A DNA stretch of 64,000 bases. Origin: an uncultured Gammaproteobacteria bacterium. GTDB lineage: Bacteria > Patescibacteriota > Patescibacteriia > Patescibacteriales > GWC2-42-12. The position numbers were made by a program, and so were the translations under genes. The notes below the pieces were generated by a model. That model made no database searches. It worked only from the letters and a program-made list of their open reading frames with translations, and was not told where the DNA came from. The stretch spans positions 12,201-76,200 of the forward strand of contig CAYSKV010000004.1 in NCBI GenBank assembly GCA_964431805.1, given 5' to 3'. Below are positions 20,310 through 62,843 of this stretch, in pieces; the stretch's first letter is position 1; every line of letters begins with the position of its first letter.

Positions 20310-20321
20310 GTTTTTATAATT

Positions 20322-20534: not shown

Positions 20535-20538
20535 AATT

Positions 20539-20754
20539 TTATTTAATAGGAAAAAAAGTTATAATTTTTATTATTTCAGCCTCTTTTTTATAAATAACTT
20601 TTATATTTTCTTTTTGCGCCGTCAAAAGTTTATCTTTTTTTCCGGCTTTGTCAGGCGCGCTAACCGTATCTTCAATTTGCTCGCGCGTAAAAAAGATTTT
20701 ATGTTTATTTAATAAATCAAATTTTTGTTCGGCGTATTTAGTAAAGTAAAACAT
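20539..20754 (-). CDS. DUF4258-like small protein (putative toxin partner)
   Basis: 71 aa. FTKYAEQKF...FTREQIEDTV...IKVIYKKEAEIIKIITFFP resembles the DUF4258 pattern. A 4-nt gap separates it from the DUF2283-like ORF. Confidence 0.45.
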   Translation of the reverse strand: MFYFTKYAEQKFDLLNKHKIFFTREQIEDTVSAPDKAGKKDKLLTAQKENIKVIYKKEAEIIKIITFFPIK

Positions 20755-20755
20755 A

Positions 20756-21190
20756 TTATTTGGGGAAAGCCGTGCTATTTGGGCAAAAACTTAAGCCGTA
20801 ATTAATATCTTGTAATTTAAACATATCAATAATTCCTCCCAATGGTCTTAGGTCAATAGTTAGTTTACAAGCATCTTCTTTTTTTATTTCTAAAATTTTA
20901 ATAAATTTTTTTTCTGCATTTTCGCGAGCTACTTGAATGTCAGGGCTACTAATAATGATAGAAAAACGATTAGTTTTTTTATCATACGTAAAAAAATAAT
21001 TCTGATTTTTATTATAGTAGAAAGTTCCATTGATATTTTCAAAATTTTTATTAGTTTCTGGGTCAACAATTTTAATAATACCAGAAGGGGATTCTAGATA
21101 AACCTTTTTACTTTGAAGAGAATAAAATATAATAATACTGATAAGTAAAATTATAATAAAGAATAGTATTAAAAAGTATTTTTTTTTCAT
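20756..21190 (-). CDS. Hypothetical membrane-anchored/exported protein
   Basis: ATG at 21190 (MKKKYFLILFFIIILLISIIIF) is preferred over the overlapping GTG at 21220. One N-terminal TM segment. No family recognised. Confidence 0.55.
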   Translation of the reverse strand: MKKKYFLILFFIIILLISIIIFYSLQSKKVYLESPSGIIKIVDPETNKNFENINGTFYYNKNQNYFFTYDKKTNRFSIIISSPDIQVARENAEKKFIKILEIKKEDACKLTIDLRPLGGIIDMFKLQDINYGLSFCPNSTAFPK

Positions 21191-21210
21191 ATTTTTAATT
21201 ATTAAATTTA

Positions 21211-22542: not shown

Positions 22543-22552
22543 AACTTAATTT

Positions 22553-23446
22553 TTAAAAAGATGCACCTCCACTTGCTTTATAACAAGAATATAGCGTTGA
22601 TGAACATGGTCTTCCTCCAGAAATTAATGCAGGTTTAGGATTAAGAGTTTGAAGAGTTGTCGCAGAATAGCATTGACCTGAACCATCACCGCACCATTCA
22701 TTCTCATTAGCTTTTCCAAAGCAATTTCCAACGCCATCACACCATCCTGATCCACTATTACAACTGTCTCCAATTTTTGATCCCGCTGTACAAACACCAA
22801 TAGAACCTATTGCTGTAATATCCGTTGTGACCGTTTGTACTGTTGTAGTTTTAAAATTCACTAACGCCGGGTTTACTGTAGCTAAAATAAAGTAAGAGCA
22901 TAAAGCTAAAAGTAAACCGGTTAAAGAGGCGCCAATCCAAGATTTGGCTTCGCCGATAGCTGTAGCATTACCGCCAGCCACAATCCACATTACGCCGCCG
23001 ATCATTAAAACTACGGCTGCTAAAATACCGACGATGCCGATAGCGTATTTATAAATTGCTCTAATGTATTGACCTATCATGGTGGTTGAGCCGTCTGGAG
23101 TATATGCTTTTCCTTTCTGGAAATCAGTACCTATCCCGACTTGGGGAGTAAAAGAAGCTTTTTTCCCGTCAGTAGATGCTGCGGCCGTAGGTGCAGCAGT
23201 AGGAGTGGTTACGTTTTCACAACAACATTCACAGTTACTTGTATCAGTACACATTGTAGGCTTAGTTTGGCTAGCGCAACTAGAAAAATCACTTAAAGTT
23301 TGTCCATAGTCACTACAGTGTTTGCTAGCTTGTATTACAGAATAATTACAAGCCGCTTGTGTTATAATAGGGAAATAAAAAATATTAATTATAAATAACA
23401 ATATTAAGGGTAAATATAGTATAATTTTTATTTTTTTTGGATTCAT
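22553..23446 (-). CDS. Cys-rich exported TrbC/VirB2-like pilin-hairpin protein (paralog of 21211-22542)
   Basis: The signal peptide and first ~50 aa, and the two-TM hairpin (AIGIVGILAAVVLMIGGVMWIVAGG...AKSWIGASLTGLLLALCSYFIL), are nearly identical to the neighbour. The Cys/Gly-rich C-terminus is different. Confidence 0.65.
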   Translation of the reverse strand: MNPKKIKIILYLPLILLFIINIFYFPIITQAACNYSVIQASKHCSDYGQTLSDFSSCASQTKPTMCTDTSNCECCCENVTTPTAAPTAAASTDGKKASFTPQVGIGTDFQKGKAYTPDGSTTMIGQYIRAIYKYAIGIVGILAAVVLMIGGVMWIVAGGNATAIGEAKSWIGASLTGLLLALCSYFILATVNPALVNFKTTTVQTVTTDITAIGSIGVCTAGSKIGDSCNSGSGWCDGVGNCFGKANENEWCGDGSGQCYSATTLQTLNPKPALISGGRPCSSTLYSCYKASGGASF

Positions 23447-23458
23447 ATTATTATATTA

Positions 23459-24628
23459 TTATTTTCCAATAAATTGAGCTTTGTCGGATTTTTTATTGGC
23501 TTGTTTAATTATTTTTTTAATAATTTCTTTAGTAATATCGCGTCCACCTAAACCAACAACAAAACTAGCAATGTTGGCGTTAGTTTTTCCCTGGGCGAAA
23601 GCTTTAATTTCTGAAGCTAATATGCCCGTAGCTCCTAGCGAAATAGATTTATCTATAATCGCGATATTTTTAGCCGGTTTAATTATTTTTAAAATTTCAT
23701 CAGTTGGAAATGGTCTAAAACATTTAATTTTTAAAATGCCAATTTTATTTGATTTACCAATGGTTTCTTTAATAGTGCCGATAACCGAACCCATGGCCAC
23801 AACTATAGTATTAGGCTTTTTCGGACCAGAATATTCTATTAAACCATTATTTATAGATTTTTGATTTTTTAAATCAGGAAAAGTTTTGTTAAATTTTTTA
23901 TATTCTTGGTCTATAGTTTTTAAACTGGCGGTTAAATCTTCATGCAATTCCTGCCTGATTTCCATATAATAGGCTGGCGTGGCTAAGGCGCCTAAAGTCG
24001 TCGGATTAGCTGGGTCTAGGAATTGCCCTGATGCAGGTTTATAATTAGGTAAATATTTTTTTATTTGTTGCTCAGTTGGGATAATGACCGGTTCATAAGT
24101 ATGGGTCATAACAAAGCCGTCAACATTTATCATAACAGGCAATTTTAACTGCTCGGCGATTTTAAAAGCCATAATATGCTGATTAACCGCTTCTTGATGA
24201 TTTTCTGCGAACAGTAAAATCCAACCGGCATCTCTAACCGCCATTACATCTTGCTGATCATTCCAAATATTAATCGGCGCGCTTACCGCTCGATTAGCGC
24301 AAGTCATAACTATTGGTAATCTCATGCCAGCGATATTATAAATTACTTCGGCCATAAGAAGTAAGCCCTGTGAACTTGTAGCGCTATAAGCTCGTACGCC
24401 GGTAGCGCTAGCGCCTAAAACTATGGAAGCGGCTGCAAATTCTGATTCAGCGCGCACATATTCATAATCGGCTTGGCCGTCAGCTTTAAATTTGGCAAGA
24501 TCTTCAACAATATGAGTTTGGGGAGTAATTGGGTAAGCGGAAACGACGGCTGGACGGATATTTTTAACGGTTAAAGCAATTGCGCGAGAACCTTCTAAAA
24601 TTTGTTGTTTATTATTTTTATTTGTCAT
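23459..24628 (-). CDS. porA: Pyruvate:ferredoxin oxidoreductase alpha subunit
   Basis: 389 aa. GSRAIALTVKNIRPAVVSAYPITPQT, and the architecture typical of PorA/VorA alpha subunits. Confidence 0.9.
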   Translation of the reverse strand: MTNKNNKQQILEGSRAIALTVKNIRPAVVSAYPITPQTHIVEDLAKFKADGQADYEYVRAESEFAAASIVLGASATGVRAYSATSSQGLLLMAEVIYNIAGMRLPIVMTCANRAVSAPINIWNDQQDVMAVRDAGWILLFAENHQEAVNQHIMAFKIAEQLKLPVMINVDGFVMTHTYEPVIIPTEQQIKKYLPNYKPASGQFLDPANPTTLGALATPAYYMEIRQELHEDLTASLKTIDQEYKKFNKTFPDLKNQKSINNGLIEYSGPKKPNTIVVAMGSVIGTIKETIGKSNKIGILKIKCFRPFPTDEILKIIKPAKNIAIIDKSISLGATGILASEIKAFAQGKTNANIASFVVGLGGRDITKEIIKKIIKQANKKSDKAQFIGK

Positions 24629-24629
24629 A

Positions 24630-24920
24630 TTATTTTTCTTGTCTTTCCATTTTTATGGCTTTAAATGGGCACTCAACTGCGCATAAGCCACAACCCTTAC
24701 AATACAATAAATCACATTCAAAATATTTTTTACCGCTAGCGTTAGTTTTTTCGGTTTGATTAATTATGCCTTCAGGACAAATTCGTTGGCAAATGCCGCA
24801 AGCCGTGCATGCGTCATGTAAAAAATTTGGCCGGTTAGTGCGCCAGGCGCCGGTTTTATTTATTAATGTTGTGTTTGGTGAAACTGAAATATTATTTTTT
24901 ACCCCGTTAGATAGTCTCAT
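24630..24920 (-). CDS. porD: Pyruvate:ferredoxin oxidoreductase delta subunit (2x[4Fe-4S] ferredoxin)
   Basis: Two CxxCxxCxxxCP motifs: CTACGICQRICP and CKGCGLCAVECP. Confidence 0.9.
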   Translation of the reverse strand: MRLSNGVKNNISVSPNTTLINKTGAWRTNRPNFLHDACTACGICQRICPEGIINQTEKTNASGKKYFECDLLYCKGCGLCAVECPFKAIKMERQEK

Positions 24921-24961
24921 GTTTTTTAGTTATACCCCGTAAAATAATTATCTAACGGGGT
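24901..24961 (-). promoter_or_regulatory. 13-bp perfect inverted repeat enclosing the porD start codon (porG-porD junction)
   Basis: ACCCCGTTAGATA (24901-24913) is the exact reverse complement of TATCTAACGGGGT (24949-24961). A third partial copy, ACCCCGT, sits at 24934-24940. The porD ATG (24920-24918) lies inside. Confidence 0.6.
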
Positions 24962-25500
24962 GAATATTTGTATGCCTGTTCAATTGCTTTTATATTTTTT
25001 TCTATTAAATCATTATGGCCGGCAAATTTTTCTTCAATGGCTTGTTTTAAAGCAGCTAAACTTATTAAGCCAGTTGCTTTAGCAAAAGCGCCCAAAATAA
25101 CCGTATTAACAATATTTTTACCGATTATTTCTAAGGCGATTTTAGTGGCGTCAATCGTATAAATATTGGCTTGTGGCAGATTAATTTTTAAATCACGCTT
25201 AGCTTTAGACGTGTTAATAATGGCGATAGTTTTTTTGTCCGCGCCTTTAGTCATGTCAAAATTATCAAGCAGACTAGCGTCTTGAATAATTAAAATGTTT
25301 GGTTGATAAATTTGTTCTCTGGTTATTATTGGTTTATCGTCTATGCGGGCATAAGCTTCTACTGGAGCGCCGGTTCTTTCTACGCCGAAAGAGGGGAAAG
25401 CTTGCGCTTGCTCGCCGTTTTTAAAAGCGGCGATGGCGATTAGTTCAGCAGCCGTTACTACGCCTTGGCCGCCGCGGCCATGAATTCTAATTTGTATCAT
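24952..25500 (-). CDS. porG: Pyruvate:ferredoxin oxidoreductase gamma subunit
   Basis: MIQIRIHGRGGQGVVTAAELIA N-terminus, typical of PorG/PorC. Confidence 0.9.
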   Translation of the reverse strand: MIQIRIHGRGGQGVVTAAELIAIAAFKNGEQAQAFPSFGVERTGAPVEAYARIDDKPIITREQIYQPNILIIQDASLLDNFDMTKGADKKTIAIINTSKAKRDLKINLPQANIYTIDATKIALEIIGKNIVNTVILGAFAKATGLISLAALKQAIEEKFAGHNDLIEKNIKAIEQAYKYSPR

Positions 25501-25508
25501 AAATAAAA

Positions 25509-26177
25509 TTATTTTTTAAGTTCCTCTATGATTTTAATAAAAGTGCCAAGCGGTATATTACCTTCAATTTTATAGCCGTTAATAAAATAAGTTGGCGTGC
25601 CGCTAATTCCGAATTCTTGTCCGTCTGTTAAATCTTTTTTTATTTGTGTTAGATATTTTTGTTGGTTTAGACAATCATTAAATCTTGTTGTGTCGGCGCC
25701 TATTTGGTTAGCCAGAGCTGAAAGTTGATTGACCGAACTTATGCCTTGATTTTGAAATAATTTATCGTGCATGGGCCAAAATAAACCTTGTTCGCCCGCG
25801 CACCTACCGCCTAAGGCCAATAACGCAGAATAATCAGCGACTATCGGGTAGTCACGCCAAATATATTTTATATCGTTTTTATATTTTAAACTAATTTCTC
25901 TAATAGTTGGAAAGGCTTGTTCGCAGTTCGTGCAAGCAAAATCTCCAAATTCAACAATAGTTATTGGTGCTTTAGTTGAGCCTAGCCAATAATGATCGTC
26001 ATCTGCCGCATTATATTGTTGTCCGCTTAATTTAACGCCAGAGCTTTTTTGGGCAGTTTTAACGCTTTCATAAATATAAAAACCAATTGCTACTAAAAAA
26101 ATTAAGGCTATAGTTAAAAAAATAATAACTAATATGCCCCACCAGGCTTTAAACCAAGGTTTATCGGTGTATTCCAT
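25509..26177 (-). CDS. Membrane-anchored DsbA-like thiol:disulfide oxidoreductase
   Basis: N-terminal TM helix. CxxC active site in FGDFACTNCEQAF. C-terminal GISGTPTYFING, typical of DsbA-family thioredoxin folds. Confidence 0.8.
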   Translation of the reverse strand: MEYTDKPWFKAWWGILVIIFLTIALIFLVAIGFYIYESVKTAQKSSGVKLSGQQYNAADDDHYWLGSTKAPITIVEFGDFACTNCEQAFPTIREISLKYKNDIKYIWRDYPIVADYSALLALGGRCAGEQGLFWPMHDKLFQNQGISSVNQLSALANQIGADTTRFNDCLNQQKYLTQIKKDLTDGQEFGISGTPTYFINGYKIEGNIPLGTFIKIIEELKK

Positions 26178-28954: not shown

Positions 28955-31822
28955 ATGGAAAAATATAATCATAAAAAAATAGAAGATAAATGGCGGGAAA
29001 AATGGGAAAAAGAGAAATTATATAAAACCGGCGAAGATAAAGCCAAGCCCAAATTTTATATTTTGGATATGTTTCCTTATCCTTCGGGCGCTGGCCTTCA
29101 TGTTGGCCATCCCAAAGGTTATATTGCTACGGATATTTTTGCTCGCGCTAAAATGATGCAAGGGTACAACGTGCTTCATCCTATGGGTTGGGATGCTTTT
29201 GGTTTGCCGGCAGAAAATTATGCTATTCAAAATAAAATTCATCCAAGAGTTGCCACAGAAAAAAATGTAGAAACTTTTAAAAGTCAGTTAAAAAAATTAG
29301 GTTTTACTTATGATTGGGATCGAGAGATAAACACCACCGATCCGGGATTTTATAAATGGACACAATGGGCATTTATAAAAATGTTTGAGCGTGGCCTAGC
29401 TTATGAATCAAACGAGCCGGTTAATTGGTGTCCGAGCTGTAAAACGGTTTTATCTAACGAAGATTTAGAAAATGGCAAATGTGAACGCTGCGGTTCTGAG
29501 ATTGAAAGAAAGCCGATGCGACAATGGGTTTTAAAAATTACTGATTACGCCGAAAGAATGTTAAATGATTTAGAAAAATTGCCATATTGGGAAGAGTCAA
29601 TTAAAGAAATGCAAAAAAATTGGATCGGCCGATCAGAAGGCGCGGAAGTTGATTTTGAAATTAACGGCGAAAAAGTAACGGTGTTTACTACGCGACCGGA
29701 TACTTTGTTCGGCGCGACGTTTTTTGTTATGGCGCCTGAACATCCATTAGTTAAAAAAATAACTACTGCTGAACAAAAATCACAAGTAGAAAAATATATT
29801 AAAGAAGCAGCTAGCAAGTCCGACATGGAAAGAACGGAATTAGCTAAAGAAAAAACCGGTGTATTTACTGGAGCTTATGCGATTAATCCAGTTAATCAAG
29901 AAAAAATTCCGGTTTACATTGCTGATTATGTGATGATGGGATATGGCACGGGCGCAATTATGGCCGTGCCGGCGCACGATGAAAGAGATTGGGAGTTTGC
30001 CAAAAAATATGACATACCGATTAAACAAGTTGTGGCGCCATATTTTTCAATTAATGATGGTCCGGACGCCGTACGTTCTGATAAAAAAACCGTAAAACGA
30101 TATACCGCTTATTCTCTCGTAAAACATTGTAAAAAAGATGAATATTTATGTTTAGATTGGGAAAAATTTGGTTGGCATTCAGGAATTATCGGCGGCATTG
30201 ACGAAGGTGAAGATTCTATAGAATCAGCCAAGCGAGAAATTATTGAAGAAACTGGCTATAAAAATATTCGCTTAGTAAAAGATCTGGGCATGGAAACTCA
30301 TAATAATTTTTACGCTGCCCATAAAAATGAAAATCGTTATGCTTTTGGTCCGGCCTTTTTGTTTGAATTAATAGATGAAGAGCAAGAACCGACTAGCGAA
30401 GAGCATACGAAAAATCATAAGGCTGTTTGGGTTAAAAAAGAAGACATGTCGACATTTTTAAATTTAGCTAATTTTGTTTATTTTTGGAAAATTTTGCAAG
30501 GTCAGGAAAGTTTTTGTTTTGCTGATAATGGCGTCGCGACTAATTCAGGTTTTTTAAATGATTTAGAAACTAAAACTGCCAAAGAAAAAATTATTAAATG
30601 GCTAGAAGAAAAAAAATTAGGTAAACGAGCGATAAATTATAAAATAAAAGATTGGGTGTTTTCTAGACAAAGATATTGGGGCGAGCCGATTCCGATTGTG
30701 CATTGCGAAAAGTGCGGTAATGTAGCCGTACCGGAAAATGAGTTACCATTAAAATTGCCGGAAGTAAAAAATTATGAACCGACCGGAACTGGCGAGTCGC
30801 CGCTAGCTAATATAAAAGAATGGGTAAATACAAAATGTCCGAAATGCGGCGGACCGGCTAAAAGAGAAACTAATACTATGCCGCAATGGGCTGGGTCAAG
30901 CTGGTATTATTTAAGATATATTGATCCGCATAATGATAAAGCTTTAATTGAAAAGGGGAAAGATAAATATTGGTCGCCGGTTGATTTTTATGTAGGCGGC
31001 GCTGAGCATGCCACGCGCCATTTAATTTACGCGCGTTTCTGGCATAAATTTTTGTTTGATATTGGCGTGGTAAATTACGACGAACCATTTACTCGTTTAC
31101 AACATGTCGGTTTAATTTTAGCCGAAGACGGACGTAAAATGAGTAAGCGCTGGATGAATGTTATTAATCCGGACGAGGTCGTAGAAAAATACGGCGCTGA
31201 TGCTATGCGCGTTTATGAAATGTTTATGGGGCCATTTTCCCAACCTTGCGCTTGGAGCACTAACGGACTAATCGGCGCTAGAAGATTTTTAGAAAATGTT
31301 TATAAATTAAAAGATAAACAATTATATGATTGCCAAGCAGATAGTTATATAAAAGAATTAGGCATGCCGCAAATGATTCATAAAACTATAAAAAAAGTTA
31401 GCGAAGATATTGAAAATTTTCGTTATAATACAGCTATTGCCCAGATGATGATTTTTGTAAATTTTGCTGTTAAGTTTGATGAACTACCGCGCGAAGTTTT
31501 TGAGAATTTTTTAAAGCTTTTAGCTCCGTTTGCGCCGCATTTAGCTGAAGAATTATGGGCTGAAATTGGCAATAAAGAATCTATTTTTAAACAAGCCTGG
31601 CCAAAATATAATCCGGCCTTAGTTAAAGATGAAACTATAAATTTAGTTATTCAAATTAATGGGAAGATTCGTGATACTATCGAAGTTTCGGCTGATATTA
31701 GCGAAGAAGAAGCAAAAAAAATAGCTCTAGAAAGCGAAAAAGTTAAAAAATGGCTTGAAGGTAAAGAGACAATAAAAGTTATTTTTGTGAAAGGGAAATT
31801 AGTTAATATAGTTATTAAATAA
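28955..31822 (+). CDS. leuS: Leucine--tRNA ligase with an inserted NUDIX-hydrolase-like domain
   Basis: HIGH motif (HVGHPKGY), KMSKS motif (KMSKRW), editing-domain end [16 protein letters not shown]. At 955 aa it is about 100-150 aa longer than typical bacterial LeuRS. NUDIX box at aa 413-435. Confidence 0.95.
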
Positions 31823-33347: not shown

Positions 33348-33851
33348 ATGTCTAAAAGGCGTAAAATACAATTAATAAGCTTACTAGTTATAATTTTGTT
33401 AGCGATTTTTTTAACTCCGAGGGTGGTAGATTATTTTCAATATAGAAATGTAGTTGCCGAAGCGGCTGGTTCAAGCTATCCTTGGCAATGCGGCGCATAT
33501 CAAGTGGCAGCAGTTGTAAGTACGTGCGCGGTTGTTAATGGAGTTTGTACTTGCGCTTCTTGCACTGCTGATGCTTGTAATAATTATAGTATGATGACTT
33601 TTACTGGTCAGCAAAATTGCGGGGCTACTTATGCGTGTATTAGTAATTTGGTTCAAGTAAAAGGTGGCGCTACAACTTTAATGGAGTGCGCGGGTAAGCA
33701 AGCTATACTCGCCGGTACTACCAATATTAATATGATGGCTCCTAATGCTTTAGTGGCTTGCCCAGGTTCTGTTGCAGCTAACAATATGGATAAATTTGTA
33801 AATTGGTTTGATAAATATATTATAGCAGGTTTCAAAGATAAAATTAAATAA
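33348..33851 (+). CDS. Hypothetical Cys-rich membrane-anchored/exported protein
   Basis: 167 aa with an N-terminal TM helix and many cysteines (TCAVVNGVCTCASCTADAC). No family recognised. Confidence 0.55.
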   Translation: MSKRRKIQLISLLVIILLAIFLTPRVVDYFQYRNVVAEAAGSSYPWQCGAYQVAAVVSTCAVVNGVCTCASCTADACNNYSMMTFTGQQNCGATYACISNLVQVKGGATTLMECAGKQAILAGTTNINMMAPNALVACPGSVAANNMDKFVNWFDKYIIAGFKDKIK

Positions 33852-52313: not shown

Positions 52314-52328
52314 AATTAGATATAAAAA

Positions 52329-52358
52329 ACACCTCCGAATTTTCGGAGGTGTTTTTTA
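52329..52358. terminator. Bidirectional terminator
   Basis: ACACCTCCGA-ATTT-TCGGAGGTGT perfect 10-bp stem, flanked by an A-run and a T-run. Confidence 0.9.
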
Positions 52359-53829: not shown

Positions 53830-53911
53830 TGTTTGCTTTTGTTATTTTGTTTATGTTATAATATTATTATAAAATTGTGCAAAAGTCAAAGTACTTAATT
53901 TCTCTTTTCCC

Positions 53912-55642
53912 ATGCTAAAAATCGGAAAATTAAACAGGTTTTATAAAATAGCCGGCGTTTTTTTATTTACGCTGTTGGCTGTTTTTTTATTAGGCAATTT
54001 TGTTTTAGCCGCGACTGGTCCTGACGTTGGCATTACTTACGCCGAAGGTACGGGCTTAAGTAATTCTCAGGATATTAGAGTAATCATCGCAAAAATCATT
54101 AGAGTAGTTATTGGATTTTTAGGCATCATCGCGGTTGGCTTAATAATTTATGCCGGCTGGCTTTGGATGACGAGCGGCGGCAATGAAGAAAAAGTTGAGC
54201 AAGCTAAAAAAACTTTAACTAATGCGGTTATCGGTTTAATCATTATTATAGCCTCGTTCGCTATCGCCAGCTTTATTCTTAATAAGTTGATTGCGGCAAC
54301 TAGCGGCGATATGATTAACGCTCCGGGCGGCGGTACTGGCGGCGGCGTGGCGGCTTTAGGCTCGGGCATAATCGAATCTCATTATCCGGAACGCAACCAG
54401 AAAGATATTCCGAGAAATACTAAAATCGCTATTACTTTTAAAGAAGCGATTGATCCGACTACGATTATAACCGACGGTAAAATTAATAAAGATAATATTA
54501 AAATTTATAAAACTAAAGATGGCGTAGCCGGCGCGGTTACTTTTGATGTTATTGCCATGAAAACCGAAGATAATAAAACTTTTGTTTTTAAGCCGACGGA
54601 ATATTTAGGCTCGCCGACTGAAAAAATTTGGTATTCGGTTGCCTTAGGTAAAAATATAAAAAAGGCTACCGGCGATTTGGCTTTTGGCGCGATTGTTGGC
54701 GCTATTGCTTATGACTGGATGTTTGAAGTCGGTACGTTTATTGATACTACGCCGCCAAAAGTTGAAAGCGTAATTCCTCAACCGAGCTCTACCGAACCGA
54801 GAAATGTTGTGGTGCAAATTAATTTTTCCGAAGCGGTAGACCCGATTGCGGCTAGCGGCGCCTTTAAGGGTGGTAGCGGCTTTAACAATATTAAAATTAT
54901 TGATAATGCCACTCAAGGTTTAATTGAAGGTAATTTTTATGTTTCTAACCAGTATAAAACTGTAGAATTTTTAACTTTTGACGCTTGCGGAACTAATTCT
55001 TGCGGTCAGACGATTTATTGTTTGCCGGGCGATAAGCAGATTAAAGCTTTTATTAACGCCGCGACTTTTGACCCTAATACAGCTTCGGCTATTTTTCCAT
55101 ATGACGGCGTAGTTGATATGGCTGATAATTCTTTTGACGGCAACGCTAACGGTACGGCTCAAGGTCCTCAGGCGCAAAGTTCTTTACCGCCTTTTAATGC
55201 TAATAGCCAAACTCACGAGGGAGAAGGCGATGATTATTTTTGGCTATTTAATACTAATAATACGATTGATACCACCCCGCCAAAAATAGATTTAGTTAGC
55301 CCGATGGTTGGCGGTAGCGGCGTTGATTTATTGGCTATTCCGGAAGCTACTTTTTCTAAATTATTAATGAGTTCGTCTTTAAATAGCTCTAGTATAAATT
55401 TTAAAAGCAGCGGCGCGGCTTATAATTACTGGATAACTAAAACCGATAATTTTAGCGATAAAAAAACTACCGCCCATGTTAATCATGATCAGTTTAATGA
55501 AAATAGTAATTATTTTGTTCAGTTTAATGCCGGCGTTAAAGATATTTACCAAAATTGTTATACGCCTTGCTCCGGTTTAGGTATAACCGGCACGCCGTCT
55601 TGCTGTAATGGTCAGGCGAGCGGTCAGGCGAGCTGCCAGTAG
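53912..55642 (+). CDS. Surface protein: TrbC/VirB2-like pilin hairpin plus Ig-like (SbsA-type) repeats and a Cys-containing C-terminus
   Basis: N-terminal anchor and hairpin (VIGFLGIIAVGLIIYAGWLWMTSGGNEEKVEQAKKTL...IIIIASFAIASFILN), a Gly-rich linker, and three repeats of the TTPPKV/PRN...F(S/K)EA(V/I)DP type. Confidence 0.65.
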   Translation: MLKIGKLNRFYKIAGVFLFTLLAVFLLGNFVLAATGPDVGITYAEGTGLSNSQDIRVIIAKIIRVVIGFLGIIAVGLIIYAGWLWMTSGGNEEKVEQAKKTLTNAVIGLIIIIASFAIASFILNKLIAATSGDMINAPGGGTGGGVAALGSGIIESHYPERNQKDIPRNTKIAITFKEAIDPTTIITDGKINKDNIKIYKTKDGVAGAVTFDVIAMKTEDNKTFVFKPTEYLGSPTEKIWYSVALGKNIKKATGDLAFGAIVGAIAYDWMFEVGTFIDTTPPKVESVIPQPSSTEPRNVVVQINFSEAVDPIAASGAFKGGSGFNNIKIIDNATQGLIEGNFYVSNQYKTVEFLTFDACGTNSCGQTIYCLPGDKQIKAFINAATFDPNTASAIFPYDGVVDMADNSFDGNANGTAQGPQAQSSLPPFNANSQTHEGEGDDYFWLFNTNNTIDTTPPKIDLVSPMVGGSGVDLLAIPEATFSKLLMSSSLNSSSINFKSSGAAYNYWITKTDNFSDKKTTAHVNHDQFNENSNYFVQFNAGVKDIYQNCYTPCSGLGITGTPSCCNGQASGQASCQ

Positions 55643-55767
55643 AAAAATTTTTATAATTTCTAATTTTTAATTTCTAAATAATATATTAATTTTTAAATTG
55701 GAAATTAATTAATTGAAAATTGTTTGAAAATTTGAAATTGAGAATTGAAAATTATTAAGTGTTTTTC

Positions 55768-58700
55768 ATGAATAAAATTAGAATAAAAAAAGTATTGTTT
55801 ATTTTTTGTTTATTAGTTGCAGTTTTTGCTGTGGCTCATTTTGCTTTAGCCGCTGACCTTAATGTTGGTTTAGATAAGGCGGCTGGCACTGGATTAGGGG
55901 ATACTGATCCGAGGATTATTGCGGCTAGAATTATCCGAATATTTTTAGGCTTTTTAGGAATTATCGCGGTTAGTTTAGTAATGTATGCTGGCTGGATGTA
56001 TATGACGGCCGAAGGCGATTCGGAAAAAGTTGAAAAAGCTAAAAAAATATTAATTGGCGCTTTAATTGGTTTAGTAATTTGTCTGGCTTCGTTCGCGATC
56101 GCCAGTTTTATTTTAAATAGTTTATTAGACGCGACCGGCGCGCAGGATAATACTGGCGGTGGCGGTGGCGGCACAATAACGCCAGGTGGCGGTATTCCAA
56201 ATTTACCAGGAGAAGGCGAGCCATGTTTAACTAATCCTTTAGATACCCAATGCGCCGCCGGACAATGCGCCGCCGGTTTAAATTGCTCTCAGAGCGATTG
56301 TTTATGTAAAAAAACTAACCAACCAGGAGAAGGAGAAAGTTGCGACGGCGATACTAAGGTCGACGGTTGTCAAGCGATTGACTGCGCTAATAATTTAATT
56401 TGTTCATCATCAGATAATTGTACTTGCATTAAAACTCCTTTGATTGCTTGGGTAAGCCCGATGGACGCTTCAAGCACGCCTAATGGAGCAGTTGGTAATT
56501 TTATAACCATCGGCGGCAGATATTTTGGCACGACGACCGGCCAGGTAGTTTTTATGGGTGATCCTAATAATGCTAATGATGATAAAGTTGCGACTTTTCC
56601 AAATTTAATTAATCCATTATGTTTAAGTTTTTGGCAGGATGATCAGATTATAGTTGTTGTGCCAGACGGAGCGGTTAATGGTCCGATTAAAGTGATTGAT
56701 AGTAAAAATCGTTACGACACCACGGATGATAATCGCGGCGCGCGCATTAATGATTTTGTGGTAAATAGTATTAAGCGCCCTGGCCTTTGCCAAGTCGATC
56801 CATCAAGCGGCGGTTTAGCCGATCCATTTAACTTACAAGGTAATTCTTTTAATCTCACGCCTCATTCGGTTTTGTTTGGTAAAGAGACTAGCGCCATAGA
56901 AGCTAATAATATAAAAAATTGGACTAATACTTCGGTTGATGCTGTTGTGCCAAACATTGTTGATGGAAGAAACTCTATATTTGTTAAAACCGGTGATGTT
57001 TATTCTAATTCCTTGTCTTTTTCAGTTGTCAATAAAACTGATACTAATCCGGTGATTGAATATATTGAACCGGATAAAGGTCCTTCAGGACAATACATAA
57101 CAATTTACGGCCGTAATTTTCAAATTTATAACGCGCAGAAAAGCGCAGTGAAATTTTATTTGCCGGCCGATCCGAATAATAAAATTAATGCGGACATTGA
57201 TTTTCCCGCAGCTTGTAAAAGTACTTGGTGGCACGATACTTATATTGTCGTTAAAGTGCCTAAGGTAAATAGTTTAGGAGATTATAAAGTTGAAGTTACT
57301 AATTCTTACGATAAAACTAGTTTGCCGGCTGATTTTGTAATTAATAATGAAACGCCAACCCCAGGCCTTTGCGCCCTAGATCCTAATAATGGTCCGATCG
57401 GTTGGCCGATGTCGGCTTATGGCGAAAGATTTGGCGCTACCCAAGGCAGCGGGCGCGCTCAATATTTTAATAATAAAGATGCAACCGCTAGTAGTTGGGC
57501 TGATGGAAAAGTTAATACTAATGTGCCGGCTCAGTCGGTTAGCGGTCCATTTAGAATAATTGATAACCAAGGTTATATTAGTAATTCGTTGCCTTTTAGA
57601 GTTGGTAAATGTTCTTCTAATGCTGATTGTGATAGTAGCGAGGAATGTTGTGGTGGCGGAACTTATTGGTCAGGCATCTGCCGTCCAGCCGGGACTTGTA
57701 ATCAAGGTGCGCCTTTAGGTTGCGGTTTTGGTTGGACCTTTTCTACTAAAGCTGGTGATTGCGCCATCACTCAACAAAAGTGCGACATTCCTAATCCGCC
57801 CGCCGGCAGTACAATAACTTTTAATTGTTGCGCGCCCGGACAATGCAATGCTTATACTGGGCAATGCGATAGCTGTCCGGTTAATAAACCTGATATGTGC
57901 GATGGCGATTTAAAATGTTGTTCGACTGGCGGTTGTATAGATCTAGATAATGATGGTAAGACTGAATGTTCTGACGGCGAAGCTTGCTCGCAATATGGTT
58001 TAAGTCAATGTTCAAGCAGTTATTTCTGTCCGAACTCTCCAGGAAAATGTTCGACTTATGGCGGCGGCGGCACGATTGAAACCGGCGATTGCGATTTTAG
58101 CTGTAATAATTTTAGCGCTTGCAAAACTGATTTGTGCGAATATAGATCAGGTATAAATAAATGTATTAAAAAGAGTCAGACTTGCAGTTTATCTAAAACT
58201 GTTAGTTATAATGTTGGTTTAACTCCAGCTACGGCTACGGCCGAATGCTCGGCTTACGACGGTGGCAATCGTTGGATTATGAAAATCAGCACTTCTTGCC
58301 CGGCTGGTTGGACTAGCATAAGCGGCGGTCGTTGCGTAGAAAATAATACAACTTGTTCAATTTGCGATACTGGCTTTAAATGTTTAAAAGAAACGGCCAG
58401 CGCGGTTGATGGCGGTTGTTTTATCGATCAAAATGTTTGCCAAGTTGGTTCAGCCTGCAGTAGCAGCAATAAATGTATTAAAAGCGATAGCGCTAGCTGC
58501 GAATGTTGCTGCCGTATTGGTCATGATAGCGAGGACTGCTGTTCACCTTTAAAATGCGAAGGCAAATGCGGTAGCGATATAACCGCTAATACTAATACTT
58601 ACGGACGTTGTTCTGGTTGCGCCAGCGTTGGCACAACCCAAGCCGACCATAATGAAGCTTGCAACTGCTCCGGCACTAGCGGTAAATTTTGTTTAGTTGA

Positions 58701-61170
58701 TGCGGCTAACCCGAGCGGCGTTTGCCAAGACTGCGCGCAGATAAGCGACGCGGCGCTTTGCAGTAATCAAGGCGTTGGCACTTGCTGCGTTGATGCTAAA
58801 AATAAAAATGCTTGCCGCGGCGGTACAGCTCCATACGCTAGCGGCAGCCCATCTTATAATTATTGCGGTTATTATGAATGTAATAATGGTAGCTGTTCCG
58901 GCACGCCAGTAGCCACTTCGACAGTTTTAAGTTATAAAACTTTAACTGAATGCAGTAATAAGTGTACGACTCCGCCTCAATTTGGCAATACCTGTTTTAG
59001 TAGCGCCACCACAACGCAAAGCTGTGATATTAATAAGTGTACCGGCTTTGCTTGTATTAACGCAGATGGCACAGGCCCAGCGGCTCCAAATTGCGGTACC
59101 TGCTGCTGCGATCCTTTTGCTACTATTGATAATTGTAAAAATTTAAATCCTAACTTAACTTGTAAACCTAACCAAGCGCCTTGTAGCGGTAGTAGCCGCG
59201 GCCTTTGCTGCGGTTGTTCCGCGGATAGCGATTGCGGTAGCGTAACTGGTTGCGGGACTGATACTTGCTGTCATGCCAGGCCGACCGTGATTGAAACTGT
59301 GCCGGCGGATGGAGCTACTAATGTTTGCCGCAATGGTTTAATTAAAGCTACATTTGACCAAGCCATGCAAACCGATACTTTTAAAGAAAATGTGATTGTG
59401 GTTGGGGATTACGGGCTTGATAAATGTCCGACCGGAACTAAATATTTAACTGAAGCTTATAAACCGGGTTTGTTTGAAAAATTAACTTATTGGTTAGCGA
59501 GGCTGCCTTTATTAGATAAGATTTTTATAAATCAAGCGAAAGCTTTAACTGGAAATTTCTGCGCGGTTACCGGATCGATTAGCGGTTATGCGGCAGGCAA
59601 CACAACTGTCATGGAATTTAAAACGAAAAAAGCTTTAGAGGCCGGTAGAAAATATTATGTTATTATAAAAGGCGATAGTAATTTAAATGATGCGGTTGCC
59701 GTCGGAGTTTTAAGCGAATCGGGCGTTGGCCTAGGCCAGTCATCCACCGAGTCATTTAACGGTGTTAATTTCACCGGTAAAATTTGGTCGTTTACTACTA
59801 AAGAAAGTACGGCCACTGATAACGGCATTTGTTTAGTTTCTTCGGTCGCGATTGATCCTTCAAGTTATTTATTTAATACTGCTACTAATGATTCGGCCGA
59901 TGATAATGTCGGAACAAATTATGATACGATTAGGGACAGCGATAAAGTTTTTTATTCAACGGCTTATTCTTCGGAAAAACAACCGATCATTCCAATTGAA
60001 AGTCTTTATAATTGGCAGTGGAATTGGAATATAGATAATAAAGCAGTTGTGAAATTTAAAAATGGCGAGAATGCGCTGGATAATAGTTCAACTCAGACTT
60101 TAGTTGCGCAAAATGTTAAAGAAGCTAATACTTTGCTTCATGCCAAACTTACTATTACTCAAGATGAAGTTAATAAAATATCAACTATCGGCCAATCTAA
60201 AGAAAAAACTGCTCCGGTTTATGTTTTCTTATGTTCTAATCCTTGGCCGTCGTTTAAAACTGATGGCACCTGGGAGCCTTGGCAAGATGCTGCTGGAAAT
60301 TGCATATCTGCATCCGGTGATTGTTCGGCTACTAATTTTGAATTATATTATTGCCGTGACGCTGGGGCTGAAGGCACAGCTGATGATTTACCGGCTATTA
60401 TAAGTGATAAAGCAGTAATCAGGGGCCAAAATTTGAAATGCGATGACGGAACTGGTAGTTGTTTGGGTAAAGCTAAAAATGACACATGTAATGATGGTAG
60501 TGGAAAATGTCAAGTGGATATAGTAAAAGAATTTTATTTCTTTAGAGAAAATATGCCTAACGTAGCGGGCGTGAATTTAACTACTAGAGTTAACGATGAA
60601 GTGCAGCAGGGCGGTAAAGCCGGGTTAGTTTGGCAGGCAGTTACTATACCAGCGGGCGAAGAATTAGATAAATATTTAATTTATTATGGCACTAGGTCAG
60701 GAAATTATGAACAGTCAATTTTTACGGCTGAGCCAGGTTCAATTAATAACCCGGCGATCGTTAATAATTTAACTAACGGAGTAAAATATTATTTTGCCGT
60801 GACCGCTAGATATAAAAGCGGAGCCGAAAGCATTTATTCAAATGAAACTAGTTTCACTCCGGCCGATAATTGGGCGCCATTAACTCCAGTAGATTTTATT
60901 GGCGAAGCCGATCAGGGGCAAGCTAAACTTGAATGGCTTGCCAATCAAGACGATACGACAATTTATAAAGTTTATTATGGTGCTACTAGCGGTTCTTTGG
61001 CTGCGTCGGTTAATTTAGAAAAAAAGAAATGTTCTGCCGCTAGCGGAAAATGTACTCTTACTATAGATGAGTTATCCGCCGGCACTACTTATTATTTTGC
61101 CGTGACCGCTCTAGACCTTAAAGGCAATGAGAGCAATAAATCAGCTGAAATTAATTTATTAATTTTATAA
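55768..61170 (+). CDS. Giant (~1800 aa) Cys-rich surface protein with an N-terminal pilin hairpin, IPT/TIG-like, Ig-like and FN3-like domains
   Basis: ATG 55768 (MNKIRIKK) is preferred over GTG 55759. Hairpin FLGFLGIIAVSLVMYAGWMYMTAEGDSEKVEKAKKIL. Two tandem Cys-knot-like repeats (GEGEPC... and GEGESC...). Four IPT-like repeats. A ~560-aa Cys-dense region at nt ~57600-59280. Two C-terminal FN3-like repeats (YYFAVTA twice). Confidence 0.7.
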   Translation: MNKIRIKKVLFIFCLLVAVFAVAHFALAADLNVGLDKAAGTGLGDTDPRIIAARIIRIFLGFLGIIAVSLVMYAGWMYMTAEGDSEKVEKAKKILIGALIGLVICLASFAIASFILNSLLDATGAQDNTGGGGGGTITPGGGIPNLPGEGEPCLTNPLDTQCAAGQCAAGLNCSQSDCLCKKTNQPGEGESCDGDTKVDGCQAIDCANNLICSSSDNCTCIKTPLIAWVSPMDASSTPNGAVGNFITIGGRYFGTTTGQVVFMGDPNNANDDKVATFPNLINPLCLSFWQDDQIIVVVPDGAVNGPIKVIDSKNRYDTTDDNRGARINDFVVNSIKRPGLCQVDPSSGGLADPFNLQGNSFNLTPHSVLFGKETSAIEANNIKNWTNTSVDAVVPNIVDGRNSIFVKTGDVYSNSLSFSVVNKTDTNPVIEYIEPDKGPSGQYITIYGRNFQIYNAQKSAVKFYLPADPNNKINADIDFPAACKSTWWHDTYIVVKVPKVNSLGDYKVEVTNSYDKTSLPADFVINNETPTPGLCALDPNNGPIGWPMSAYGERFGATQGSGRAQYFNNKDATASSWADGKVNTNVPAQSVSGPFRIIDNQGYISNSLPFRVGKCSSNADCDSSEECCGGGTYWSGICRPAGTCNQGAPLGCGFGWTFSTKAGDCAITQQKCDIPNPPAGSTITFNCCAPGQCNAYTGQCDSCPVNKPDMCDGDLKCCSTGGCIDLDNDGKTECSDGEACSQYGLSQCSSSYFCPNSPGKCSTYGGGGTIETGDCDFSCNNFSACKTDLCEYRSGINKCIKKSQTCSLSKTVSYNVGLTPATATAECSAYDGGNRWIMKISTSCPAGWTSISGGRCVENNTTCSICDTGFKCLKETASAVDGGCFIDQNVCQVGSACSSSNKCIKSDSASCECCCRIGHDSEDCCSPLKCEGKCGSDITANTNTYGRCSGCASVGTTQADHNEACNCSGTSGKFCLVDAANPSGVCQDCAQISDAALCSNQGVGTCCVDAKNKNACRGGTAPYASGSPSYNYCGYYECNNGSCSGTPVATSTVLSYKTLTECSNKCTTPPQFGNTCFSSATTTQSCDINKCTGFACINADGTGPAAPNCGTCCCDPFATIDNCKNLNPNLTCKPNQAPCSGSSRGLCCGCSADSDCGSVTGCGTDTCCHARPTVIETVPADGATNVCRNGLIKATFDQAMQTDTFKENVIVVGDYGLDKCPTGTKYLTEAYKPGLFEKLTYWLARLPLLDKIFINQAKALTGNFCAVTGSISGYAAGNTTVMEFKTKKALEAGRKYYVIIKGDSNLNDAVAVGVLSESGVGLGQSSTESFNGVNFTGKIWSFTTKESTATDNGICLVSSVAIDPSSYLFNTATNDSADDNVGTNYDTIRDSDKVFYSTAYSSEKQPIIPIESLYNWQWNWNIDNKAVVKFKNGENALDNSSTQTLVAQNVKEANTLLHAKLTITQDEVNKISTIGQSKEKTAPVYVFLCSNPWPSFKTDGTWEPWQDAAGNCISASGDCSATNFELYYCRDAGAEGTADDLPAIISDKAVIRGQNLKCDDGTGSCLGKAKNDTCNDGSGKCQVDIVKEFYFFRENMPNVAGVNLTTRVNDEVQQGGKAGLVWQAVTIPAGEELDKYLIYYGTRSGNYEQSIFTAEPGSINNPAIVNNLTNGVKYYFAVTARYKSGAESIYSNETSFTPADNWAPLTPVDFIGEADQGQAKLEWLANQDDTTIYKVYYGATSGSLAASVNLEKKKCSAASGKCTLTIDELSAGTTYYFAVTALDLKGNESNKSAEINLLIL

Positions 61171-61184
61171 TTTAATAAAATTTT

Positions 61185-61838
61185 ATGTTTGACGAATTAG
61201 ATAAAAACAATCCGGTTCCGACCGGAAATTTTAAACCAGCCGGACCAGCGCCAGCAAAAGCCGAAGATATTTTTTCCGAAGTTGATAATTCTGTTAAACC
61301 AGAAGTCTTTAGGCCAAAAATTAACGATCCGATGGCTATACCGGATACAGTAATACCAGCGGAAACCACTTGGTTAAAAAACAAAGGTTTGATTTTTGGT
61401 TTAGTTATTGGCGGCTTAATTATTATTTTTGGCGGTTTTATTATTTTAAAATTAATGATTAAAGATGATGCGACGGTTGCGCCAGTTAAAGAAGAAGCAC
61501 AAAATACTCAAACCCAAACCCCAACTCAAGAAGTTACCGAACCGATGGAAGAAGAAGTTGCTACTTCCACTAATCAATTAACTCAGCCGATAGTTACTGA
61601 GCCGCTTGATACTGATTTAGATGGTTTAACCGATGAAGAAGAAGGCAGTCTTAGAACTGATATTAATAGTTCGGATACTGATCAAGATGGTTTAACTGAT
61701 CGCGAGGAAGTAAAAGTTTATAGCACAGATCCTTTACAAGCTGATACTGACGGCGATGGTTATTCGGACGGTGAAGAAGTTAAAAACGGTTTTAACCCAA
61801 GTGGCGAGGGCAAACTCTTAGATATTAATAATCAATAA
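61185..61838 (+). CDS. Membrane-anchored protein with thrombospondin type-3-like Asp-rich Ca-binding repeats
   Basis: One central TM segment. DTDLDGLTDEEE, DTDQDGLTDREE, DTDGDGYSDGEE. Confidence 0.65.
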   Translation: MFDELDKNNPVPTGNFKPAGPAPAKAEDIFSEVDNSVKPEVFRPKINDPMAIPDTVIPAETTWLKNKGLIFGLVIGGLIIIFGGFIILKLMIKDDATVAPVKEEAQNTQTQTPTQEVTEPMEEEVATSTNQLTQPIVTEPLDTDLDGLTDEEEGSLRTDINSSDTDQDGLTDREEVKVYSTDPLQADTDGDGYSDGEEVKNGFNPSGEGKLLDINNQ

Positions 61839-61844
61839 AATAAT

Positions 61845-62843
61845 ATGTTTGGTTTTTTTAAAAAAGAAAAAATAGAAAAGATTGAAACTATCGGTGAAAA
61901 AAAATCCGCGGCTGCTTTAAAAGAGCAAGTTAATGTTGATAATATAGATGTTCATGTTATGCCAGATCGTTTTCGCAATCAACCAATTAAGCAGCATAGC
62001 GCTAAAACTACTGGTCTAATAATAATTATTGGCGGCGGGGTATTTTTAGTAGTGCTTTCGGCGGTTTTATATTATTTTCTGTTTAAAAAACCAAGCGTAA
62101 CTATTAATCAGGAACCGTCTATAATTAAAGAAGAAAATAAACCCACTCAAGAGAATAATCAAATCAATCAAAATTTAGCTGCAACCGGAACCGAATCAAC
62201 GCTTTTACCGATAAGTTCTGAAGCGGCGACCACAACCGTTGCTACTACAACCGAAGAAATTATGGAAGAGACAGATAATCTTGCTTTAAGTTTTGGGCAA
62301 GATAGCGACAATGATGGTTTAACTGATATGGAAGAAACTATTTTAAGCAGTAGCACTTCCACGCCTGACACTGACGGCGATGGTTATCTCGACGGTTCAG
62401 AATTAGGAAATTTATACAATCCAGCCGGCGAAGGTAAAATAACCGCTAATTCAAACATCGTGCTTTATGAAAATAAAACTTTTTCTTACGATTTGTTTTA
62501 TCCGGCGATTTGGCAAACTAGCGTTAACGGCGGGGATGATTCGTTGATGTTTAAAACCAGCGATAACCAATTTGTGCAAATAATCGTTCAGCCTAACGTT
62601 AATAAACAAACGCTTGATGACTGGTATATAGAACAGCTTGGCGTTATCGCTATTAACGAAGCTGATAGAATGAGCGGCGGAAATTGGCAGGGCATTAAAA
62701 GCCCGGATGGTTTAAACATTTATTTAATGAATGAAAAACAGAGTTATATATTTAATTTAACTTATAGTCCGGGCGAAAATAAAATTTTACAATATTTTAA
62801 TATTTTTCAGATGATGGTTAAATCGTTTAATTTAAAAAATTAA
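61845..62843 (+). CDS. Membrane-anchored protein with Asp-rich Ca-binding repeats and a C-terminal globular domain
   Basis: One TM segment. DSDNDGLTDMEE and DTDGDGYLDGSE. C-terminal domain of ~140 aa with no recognised family. Confidence 0.6.
   Translation: MFGFFKKEKIEKIETIGEKKSAAALKEQVNVDNIDVHVMPDRFRNQPIKQHSAKTTGLIIIIGGGVFLVVLSAVLYYFLFKKPSVTINQEPSIIKEENKPTQENNQINQNLAATGTESTLLPISSEAATTTVATTTEEIMEETDNLALSFGQDSDNDGLTDMEETILSSSTSTPDTDGDGYLDGSELGNLYNPAGEGKITANSNIVLYENKTFSYDLFYPAIWQTSVNGGDDSLMFKTSDNQFVQIIVQPNVNKQTLDDWYIEQLGVIAINEADRMSGGNWQGIKSPDGLNIYLMNEKQSYIFNLTYSPGENKILQYFNIFQMMVKSFNLKN

Follow-up and report, generated by a model that had tools for sequence, protein, structure and literature searches.

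Patescibacteria account for a large share of bacterial diversity, and the members that have been cultured live attached to other cells. To our knowledge, the type IV pili of Saccharibacteria are the sole case in which the mechanism of this attachment has been established. The patescibacterial type IV secretion system (T4SS), found to be essential in the single species in which this was examined, has VirB2-like pilins, which are unusual for a monoderm organism; we know of no adhesin that has been found for it. VirB2/TrbC pilins (PF04956, with the patescibacterial branch PF18895) are proteins of ~70-120 amino acids (aa) in the mature form, in which a leader is followed by two hydrophobic helices with a short polar loop, the termini being predicted to lie outside; they carry no further domain, form extracellular pili by polymerising with phospholipid and are encoded beside VirB4, VirB3 and VirB6. 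The family itself, its abundance in freshwater Patescibacteria and the existence of tandem arrays of small VirB2-like pilins have been described (PMC12102498, PMC12857230, PMC10633639). Here an analysis is presented of four adjacent genes in a 64,000-nucleotide (nt) stretch of contig CAYSKV010000004.1 (the window; AT-rich patescibacterial DNA with a G+C content of ~35%). Two of these genes encode proteins that begin with the same leader and pair of helices but, unlike the known pilins, continue into 450 or 1680 extra residues, which are predicted to be extracellular, and are encoded in a housekeeping neighbourhood.

The four genes make up a conserved cell-surface module that is part of the core genome in class ABY1 (Falkowbacteria-type) Patescibacteria. 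All are on the forward strand, spanning positions 53912 to 62843, and they encode proteins of 576, 1803, 217 and 332 aa, the first two of which are referred to below as the medium protein and the giant. The intervening gaps are 116, 14 and 6 nt, in agreement with the original prediction for this DNA, which had described four co-directional genes and given the last two gaps. That prediction also placed all four proteins on the same anchor; in fact, only the medium protein and the giant have it. The other two had been described as membrane proteins with DxDxDG repeats, and do contain three (217 aa) and two (332 aa) of these. Each has a predicted cytoplasmic N-terminus, one ordinary transmembrane (TM) helix and a low-complexity linker, followed by Ca-binding-type TSP3 repeats, without a hairpin. 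No LPxTG-like motif is present at the C-terminus of any of the four proteins, and Pfam and NCBIfam scans of the cluster proteins returned no SLH or other wall-binding domain.

In a scan of one genome per species, relatives of the giant were found in 181 genomes, and 80 loci were fetched. Many of these loci, L006, L014 and L015 among them, are titled 'uncultured Gammaproteobacteria bacterium' despite clearly patescibacterial gene content, which is probably an error in the labelling of metagenome-assembled genomes (MAGs). The block occupies the same housekeeping slot (relA ... ybeY-dgkA-ftsAZ) in ~70 of the 80 species-level loci. Nearly all loci that reach far enough have the gene order Der-LytR-signal peptidase I-HisS-YqeY-RelA/SpoT (opposite strand)-medium-giant-TSP3-~335 aa-YbeY-DgkA-(FtsA-FtsZ), with medium proteins of 560-996 aa and giants of 1.5-2.6 thousand aa (kaa). 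The medium protein has 68 orthologues across related loci, the TSP3 and ~335-aa genes each follow the giant in 70 of 84 loci, and loci of sufficient length contain exactly two hairpin open reading frames (ORFs), always in tandem. Judged by this synteny, the cluster is a core chromosomal block rather than part of a T4SS or a mobile element. In locus L086 (15215-21335), the giant is separated from the TSP3 genes by an additional gene for a 1478-aa He_PIG/NHL protein, along with another TSP3 gene. As this slot holds extra genes in some genomes, the block evidently accepts additional surface genes.

The giant is a real gene, since its full-length homologues (1.5-2.7 kaa) number more than 120 and its ratio of non-synonymous to synonymous substitution (dN/dS) is 0.12, which denotes purifying selection; the dN/dS values obtained were 0.12-0.25 overall. 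By the same evidence its reading frame is intact, and is not that of the frameshifted pseudogene that had been envisaged as an alternative. Substitution rates were measured against a single relative, the closest among the fetched loci, which is a MAG named 'Patescibacteria group bacterium'; its giant is 89% identical, and its HisS and RelA flanks are 99-100% identical. The ORF of the giant was listed from a GTG at 55759, but its homologues align from the ATG at 55768 (MNKIRIKK), which is probably the true start.

The first ~125 residues are common to the medium protein and the giant (57% identity over 123 aa, E 2e-29), as had been noticed from the translations. In the medium protein, a signal peptide (aa 1-34) and a short N-terminal tail precede the hairpin (aa 55-130, nt 54074-54301), which is followed by a linker and approximately three Big_5 domains; hydropathy places the hydrophobic segments at residues 9-39, 54-88 and 100-130. 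The giant starts with a signal peptide (aa 1-32), and between this and the hairpin lies a conserved TGLG..DPR tail. An AlphaFold2 (AF2) model of the N-terminal part of the giant was built from 38 sequences, with a mean predicted local distance difference test score (pLDDT) of 82. Numbered from the ATG at 55768, it contains a leader helix (3-29) and two further helices (48-80 and 85-123) joined by a four-residue turn, after which comes a disordered Gly linker. In the numbering of the 1803-aa ORF, the hairpin helices are aa 51-83 and 88-126; their pLDDT is ~80 and hydropathy agrees with them.

The original prediction compared this module to TrbC/VirB2-like pilins, and it does score against the corresponding profiles. 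T4SS_pilin (PF18895; gathering cut-off 26.6 bits) matches the medium protein at 33.5 bits, above the cut-off. For the giant, the score is 23.4 bits over the full length, below the cut-off, and 30.2 bits when its N-terminal 130 aa are taken alone. Of the 71 profile positions, the alignments, in adjacent genes, cover 5-71 (E 4.6e-8) and 13-71 (E 6.5e-5). All 15 modules compared, four from the window and eleven from orthologues, match PF18895 (best 4.3e-13), and 4 of the 15 match PF04956 TrbC/VIRB2 (best E 3.9e-9); among the window proteins, the giant module gave no PF04956 match at E <= 1 and the 576-aa protein none at E <= 0.1. A third model, NF045849 ('Mbov_0395 family pilin-like conjugal transfer protein'; cut-off 40 bits), scores 43.3 bits on the medium protein, where 71 of its 80 positions are covered on the hairpin, and 38.9 bits on the giant. 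Because the cluster proteins are 7 to 22 times longer than the 80-aa model protein, they share a domain with it and are not its equivalogs. The Gly, Ala and Lys positions of the hairpin are invariant across both this subfamily and a second one, described below. The profile matches place the hairpin base within the VirB2/TrbC-like pilin families.

No other region of the two proteins is as conserved as the hairpin: its median identity is 66% (giant) and 61% (medium protein), against 31-53% elsewhere. In the same genomes, the single TM helices of the 217- and 332-aa genes reach 24% and 42%, and signal peptides 34-43%. Medium and giant hairpins from the same genome are 68.4% identical, as against 57.6 +/- 0.7% when the genome pairings are shuffled, and none of 5000 permutations reached the observed value. 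By these measures of sequence identity, the hairpin is constrained far more than a plain anchor would need to be, and co-evolves between the paralogues. Recent gene conversion between the two hairpin segments of the window was considered and rejected, as they are only 65% identical at the DNA level; the same codon is used at 39 of 68 conserved residues.

Beyond the hairpin, the giant has the series of domains listed in Table 1. It contains 113 cysteines (6.3%, versus 0.84% in the rest of the window), most of which are invariant across homologues in alignments of 26-72 sequences; these alignments also define the invariant columns of the beta-rich domains described below. The linker has a pLDDT below 50, and the two six-Cys modules, which had been called Cys-knot-like and in which the cysteine positions are invariant or nearly so, have no Pfam match. 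The IPT/TIG region is modelled by AF2 as four sandwiches at a pLDDT of ~90. The cysteine-rich region that follows matched no known family in Pfam, and its model is beta-rich and partly confident. The beta-rich domains after Big_5 carry invariant W/Y/C motifs (VYVFLCxNPWP and YYCRD), and the C-terminal FN3 domains have PDB profile matches to the FN3 domains of titin and neogenin. Foldseek searches with the giant returned only Ig/FN3/IPT chains, such as plexin IPT, contactin, titin and GhpA Ig-domain chains, and no enzyme fold was among the matches of its models. The architecture first read from the translation, with a Gly run, two tandem Cys repeats, four IPT/TIG-like repeats, a ~560-aa region full of CC, CxC and CxxC strings and two FN3-like repeats, was recovered by inspection, Pfam or AF2. 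Its Ig-like domain was found as well, as a Big_5 domain, although the match is only partial.

Across 45 loci, the median identity between the window proteins and their counterparts is 36-41% for the four cluster proteins and 61-72% for the flanking housekeeping proteins; the cluster evolves about twice as fast as its flanks. Synonymous divergence (dS) from the closest relative is 0.17-0.24 in the flanks; it reaches 0.7-1.45 over aa ~1300-1800 of the giant, and the medium protein has values of 0.39-0.53 over its C-terminal half. The excess over the flanks is thus 3-6x at the distal end of the giant (59660-61167) and ~2x in the medium protein (54815-55639). This raised dS at the membrane-distal ends points to their exchange by recombination, and suggests that they are mosaic through allelic exchange. 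Turnover of ectodomains, which had been put forward for comparative analysis, does not fit the giant, a conserved orthologue of fixed architecture of which just the distal end diverges fast.

Two further hairpin proteins, of 443 and 297 aa, are encoded elsewhere in the window, outside the cluster. Each consists of a Cys-rich N-terminal domain, a module-related hairpin and a C-terminal domain. The kinship that had been claimed for the hairpins at 21211-23446 holds in so far as they match T4SS_pilin (E 2e-4), though the scores are below the cut-off. The 443-aa protein has a weak match to the lysozyme-like SLT_3 (E 8e-4). Relatives of this second subfamily have the N-terminal part in common with it, and among the 120 best matches 49 have hydrolase C-termini (SLT, SLT_3, 3D, glucosaminidase, amidase_2 and VanY/M15). 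The idea that very different ectodomains have been placed on one hairpin family is therefore upheld, as the relatives carry at least six kinds of peptidoglycan hydrolase domain; these fusions could provide the VirB1-like functions that are reported to be mostly missing near patescibacterial virB4. The 443- and 297-aa genes, along with small ORFs, occupy a fixed slot between porA and porB of a pyruvate:ferredoxin oxidoreductase set (19404-26177, reverse strand), with a gene for a DsbA-like protein immediately upstream. This arrangement recurs in other genomes, and the subfamily is also represented in loci L089, L091 and L092. The DsbA-like protein is a candidate oxidase for extracytoplasmic cysteines, and may by extension act on the giant. 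A 'CECCC' motif common to the giant and the 443- and 297-aa proteins was considered and discarded as not significant (E 2.8).

The module is also widespread. Of 1.84 billion cluster representatives, 82,598 proteins match the hairpin profile at E <= 1e-3 and 26,515 at E <= 1e-10, including short pilin-sized proteins. The best-scoring library proteins have 2-17 tandem hairpins in a single chain, and can be described as concatenated pilin modules, that is, as polytopic membrane proteins. Examples are P0121 (552 aa), P0122 (1775 aa) and P0131 (1147 aa); P0121 is made up of six near-identical hairpin units with short linkers between them.

Taken together, the preferred reading, given about even odds, is that the cluster encodes a membrane-resident, self-associating base derived from pilins that displays adhesive stalks. 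The 576- and 1803-aa proteins would leave the cytoplasm by the Sec route, and signal peptidase I would remove the leaders, cleaving after ALA or VLA. The hairpin would hold them in the cytoplasmic membrane with the N- and C-termini outside and a short Lys-rich loop inside. VirB2 and TraA are arranged likewise in the membrane, with both ends outside and the loop inside. A Gly-rich tether would then lead into a long rod of IPT/TIG, Big_5 and FN3 Ig-like domains and disulfide-rich modules, the cysteines of which are probably oxidised by the DsbA-like protein, and the fast-evolving, recombining tip may bind a partner cell or a surface. The hairpins of the two paralogues would pair, and may also contact the pilin machinery of a T4SS encoded at another locus, and the two downstream single-pass TSP3 proteins would serve as accessory surface components.

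Several points weigh against this proposal. An adhesive role is deduced from domain types that are also found in structural and enzymatic proteins, and the cluster proteins of this lineage are known from sequence and predicted models alone. When the hairpin profile was compared with PDB sequences, no solved pilin was retrieved, just chance helices of G-protein-coupled receptors at E ~1; a sequence comparison of the 576-aa protein with the PDB gave no relative either. T4SS genes are absent within 10 kb of the block in loci L001-L004, L086 and L087, for which gene content was listed. In addition, the likeness of hairpins within a genome could reflect old gene conversion rather than physical contact, and hydrophobic low-complexity sequence somewhat inflates the hairpin identities.

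Alternatively, the hairpins might be true pilin subunits, which a VirB4-type T4SS encoded at another locus would pull out of the membrane and build into a conjugation-type pilus, as minor or tip subunits that carry the giant adhesin, with the hydrolase fusions playing the role of VirB1. This is considered rather unlikely. Membership of the module in pilin families (PF18895, NF045849 and, in 4 of 15 cases, PF04956) would be expected under such a scheme, and it is consistent with the very high conservation of the hairpin, the co-evolution of the paralogues and the peptidoglycan hydrolase domains of second-subfamily relatives. It also agrees with the established placement of the C-terminus of VirB2/TraA pilins on the outer face, where the fusions would lie, and with published descriptions of essential VirB2-like pilin arrays in Patescibacteria, where no PrgB-like adhesin and few VirB1 homologues are reported to have been detected (PMC12102498, PMC12857230, PMC10633639). 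Five cluster-bearing genomes are included in Table S1 of PMC12102498; all belong to class ABY1 and have VirB4 presence 'Yes', from which it follows that a T4SS is encoded elsewhere in such genomes. However, because VirB4 is present in most Patescibacteria, its co-occurrence with the cluster in five of five related genomes says little. The cluster genes themselves lie in housekeeping slots, never beside T4SS genes in the loci with gene lists, and an ectodomain of 190 kDa per subunit would be hard to fit in a pilus lattice, leaving the giant as at most a rare subunit. No patescibacterial T4SS pilus is known to have been seen yet. In the window, the original prediction saw no VirB4/VirD4-type ATPase, and a scan of ORFs of at least 100 aa for T4SS or type IV pilus ATPases likewise found none; of the remaining ORFs, the two largest (11888-15343 and 15382-19326) correspond to RNA polymerase beta and beta' according to the annotation of related loci.

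A broader proposal is that the pilin hairpin is a general docking module in Patescibacteria, recruiting giant adhesins, hydrolases and multi-hairpin proteins to the essential T4SS, or else being polymerised by the T4SS. This idea is tentative and rather unlikely. If it were true, a monoderm would possess a decorated pilus or contact organelle, which would form a basis of host attachment and would provide two functions, those of an adhesin and of VirB1, that T4SS loci of Patescibacteria are reported to lack.

The medium protein and the giant could instead make up a structural envelope layer, an S-layer-like coat or spacer that shapes the envelope and does not bind a partner, the location near ftsA/ftsZ and LytR then reflecting a role in the envelope or in division. 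By its Pfam/InterPro naming, Big_5 is the Ig-like domain type of the S-layer protein SbsA; each genome has a single copy of the cluster, at a constant core location next to genes for the cell envelope and division, its cysteine framework is invariant and Ca-binding TSP3 partners are present. Such a coat is nevertheless distinctly unlikely, as neither SLH nor any other wall-binding domain came up in the Pfam and NCBIfam scans, divergence and recombination are rapid at the distal ends in the manner of an interaction surface, and an 1800-aa rod is not a typical lattice former. The extra adhesin-like gene (He_PIG/NHL, 1478 aa) inserted in the same slot in some genomes also argues against it.

It might also be asked whether the hairpin is simply a two-helix anchor that matches pilin models through its hydrophobic composition rather than by descent or function. 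The pilin models are short and hydrophobic, the whole giant scores below the PF18895 cut-off, no PDB pilin is recovered by sequence and the listed loci have no T4SS neighbourhood. Set against this, three independent curated models match, and in two cases the score exceeds the cut-off; both subfamilies have the same invariant Gly, Ala and Lys positions, and the conservation is far above that of the real plain anchors of the same operon. The module profile is, moreover, matched by the large set of library proteins mentioned above, short pilin-sized ones included, and convergence is regarded as very improbable. Finally, the idea that the giant ORF arose by chance, by misassembly or through decay of a former gene, for which nothing more speaks than its unusual length and the GTG start in the ORF list, is rejected as having a practically negligible probability, given its full-length orthologues in many independent assemblies, its relatives in 181 species-level genomes, its dN/dS, its invariant cysteines and its confident AF2 domains.

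The 82-nt divergent gap between relA/spoT (reverse strand) and the first cluster gene is likely, from its position, to be the promoter region of the cluster. It contains one promoter-like site (53839-53867, forward strand), which is a consensus match only (9 of 12 positions). Promoter and terminator scans inside the cluster gave results no better than those for shuffled sequence. Upstream of the cluster, between the convergent yqeY and relA/spoT, there is a perfect 16-bp stem-loop at 52323-52358, with A and T runs on its sides; it is the sole strong terminator-like one in the scan, and is likely to be a bidirectional terminator. The C-terminal domain of the 332-aa protein, scanned alone, has a weak PsbP-like match (E 0.0017, below cut-off).

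Elsewhere in the window, residues 407-498 of the leucyl-tRNA synthetase (28955-31822, forward strand) form a NUDIX domain, with a score of 32 bits that exceeds the cut-off, in place of which the enzyme of locus L091 has a weak Ham1p_like match. The segment 34759-40603 (forward strand) encodes two tandem paralogous histidine kinases of ~825 aa (7TM, GAF, PAS, HisKA, HATPase) and, after them, a response regulator containing a pair of receiver domains. Another small Cys-rich protein is encoded by a 167-aa ORF adjoining ksgA (33348-33851, forward strand), with 6% Cys and no Pfam match.

Table 1. Positions of the cluster, of the domains of the giant and of related features in the window
Feature	Position	Strand	Basis
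Putative promoter region	53830..53911	.	82-nt divergent gap, relA/spoT (-) vs first cluster gene
Medium hairpin protein, 576 aa	53912..55642	+	T4SS_pilin 33.5 bits; Big_5 75 bits, 3 stretches; NF045849 43.3 bits
Giant hairpin protein, 1803 aa from GTG	55759..61170	+	ORF, homologues, dN/dS, Cys content
VirB2/TrbC-like helical hairpin of giant, aa 51-126	55909..56136	+	T4SS_pilin 30.2 bits alone; AF2 helices
Gly-rich disordered linker (aa 127-152) and two tandem ~37-aa six-Cys modules (aa 153-226) of giant	56137..56436	+	Sequence
Four IPT/TIG beta-sandwich domains of giant, aa 227-614	56437..57600	+	Pfam TIG 58.2 bits, 3 stretches
Cysteine-rich region of giant, aa 615-~1175	57601..59280	+	81 Cys, mostly invariant; 11 CC, 3 CxC, 5 CxxC
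Big_5-like Ig domain and conserved beta-rich domains of giant	59281..60558	+	Big_5 37-45 bits; AF2 pLDDT 80-93 over most
Two C-terminal FN3 domains of giant, membrane-distal tip	60559..61167	+	Pfam fn3 50 bits, 2 stretches
217-aa single-pass membrane protein	61185..61838	+	TSP3_bac 46 bits; TM ~aa 66-94; three TSP3 (DxDxDG) repeats
332-aa single-pass membrane protein	61845..62843	+	TSP3_bac 19.8 bits; TM ~aa 56-81; two TSP3 repeats
Two further hairpin proteins, 443 and 297 aa	21211-22542, 22553-23446	-	T4SS_pilin 21.7 and 21.9 bits, E 2e-4, below cut-off
Membrane-anchored DsbA-like thioredoxin	25509..26177	-	Thioredoxin_4 95.8 bits, DSBA 59 bits

Public annotation tags homologues of these proteins with PF18895 and names them just 'IPT/TIG domain-containing' or 'hypothetical'. 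In the searchable literature, which leaves most subscription journals outside and is weak evidence to that extent, no account was found of a pilin module fused to giant ectodomains or to wall hydrolases, nor of the four-gene block or the pattern of hairpin conservation and co-evolution. Should the hairpin link these proteins to the T4SS, it would explain what this system displays and how the wall is crossed; should there be no such link, the cluster would show clearly how a pilin has been reused as a conserved module for assembly in the membrane. In both cases, it points to specific proteins of class ABY1 as candidates for host contact, and connects, in a way that can be tested, two sets of proteins that have been studied separately.

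Patescibacterial VirB2 arrays belong to the same Pfam family and the same phylum, and consist, as here, of tandem divergent paralogues (57% identity here; mean 25% and maximum 54% in the arrays; PMC12102498). They were delimited as 2-11 genes in tandem with an i-E value below 0.001 and profile coverage above 50% (PMC12102498), and the two adjacent hairpin genes of the window would be counted as an array on these terms. The arrays differ in being made up of small pilins, often near virB4 (PMC12102498; Southlakia epibionticum T4SS, PMC10633639). The proteins of the window are not stand-alone small pilins, being 576 and 1803 aa long and having between them Big_5, TIG, fn3 and Cys-rich regions, and fusion of VirB2-like pilins to large ectodomains is not mentioned in either of the array papers (PMC12102498, PMC10633639).

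The hairpin also matches the Mbov_0395-family protein of a mycoplasma integrative and conjugative element (NF045849), whose model describes a stand-alone mobile-element protein of 80 residues, whereas here the hairpin is the base of large chromosomal proteins. Mycoplasmas, which are wall-less, are monoderm, like Patescibacteria. Proteins of Peregrinibacteria, a lineage of the candidate phyla radiation (CPR), are likewise large (~1650 aa), secreted and very Cys-rich, with a proposed role in attachment, and vary between strains (PMC4736985). They come from another lineage and are likened to the giant by description; as the word 'pilin' is absent from the text of that paper, no pilin-type base is mentioned for them. 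Chains of IPT/Ig-like domains, with small Cys-rich modules before IPT, are seen in the Aureispira grappling-hook protein GhpA and in plexin PSI-IPT ectodomains, examples of rod-like Ig-domain adhesins and fibres (Foldseek E 1e-12 to 1e-14). This likeness is one of common folds only, at ~10-14% identity, and anchoring and assembly differ.

Sortase-anchored T4SS adhesins of the PrgB type have a C-terminal LPXTG, which the cluster proteins lack, and S-layer proteins of the Gram-positive type combine an SLH or other wall-binding module with lattice-forming domains, where the cluster has just Big_5 Ig-like domains. The present locus shows that very large, conserved and fast-evolving surface proteins are built on the pilin module as well, and that a sister subfamily of the same module carries cell-wall hydrolases.

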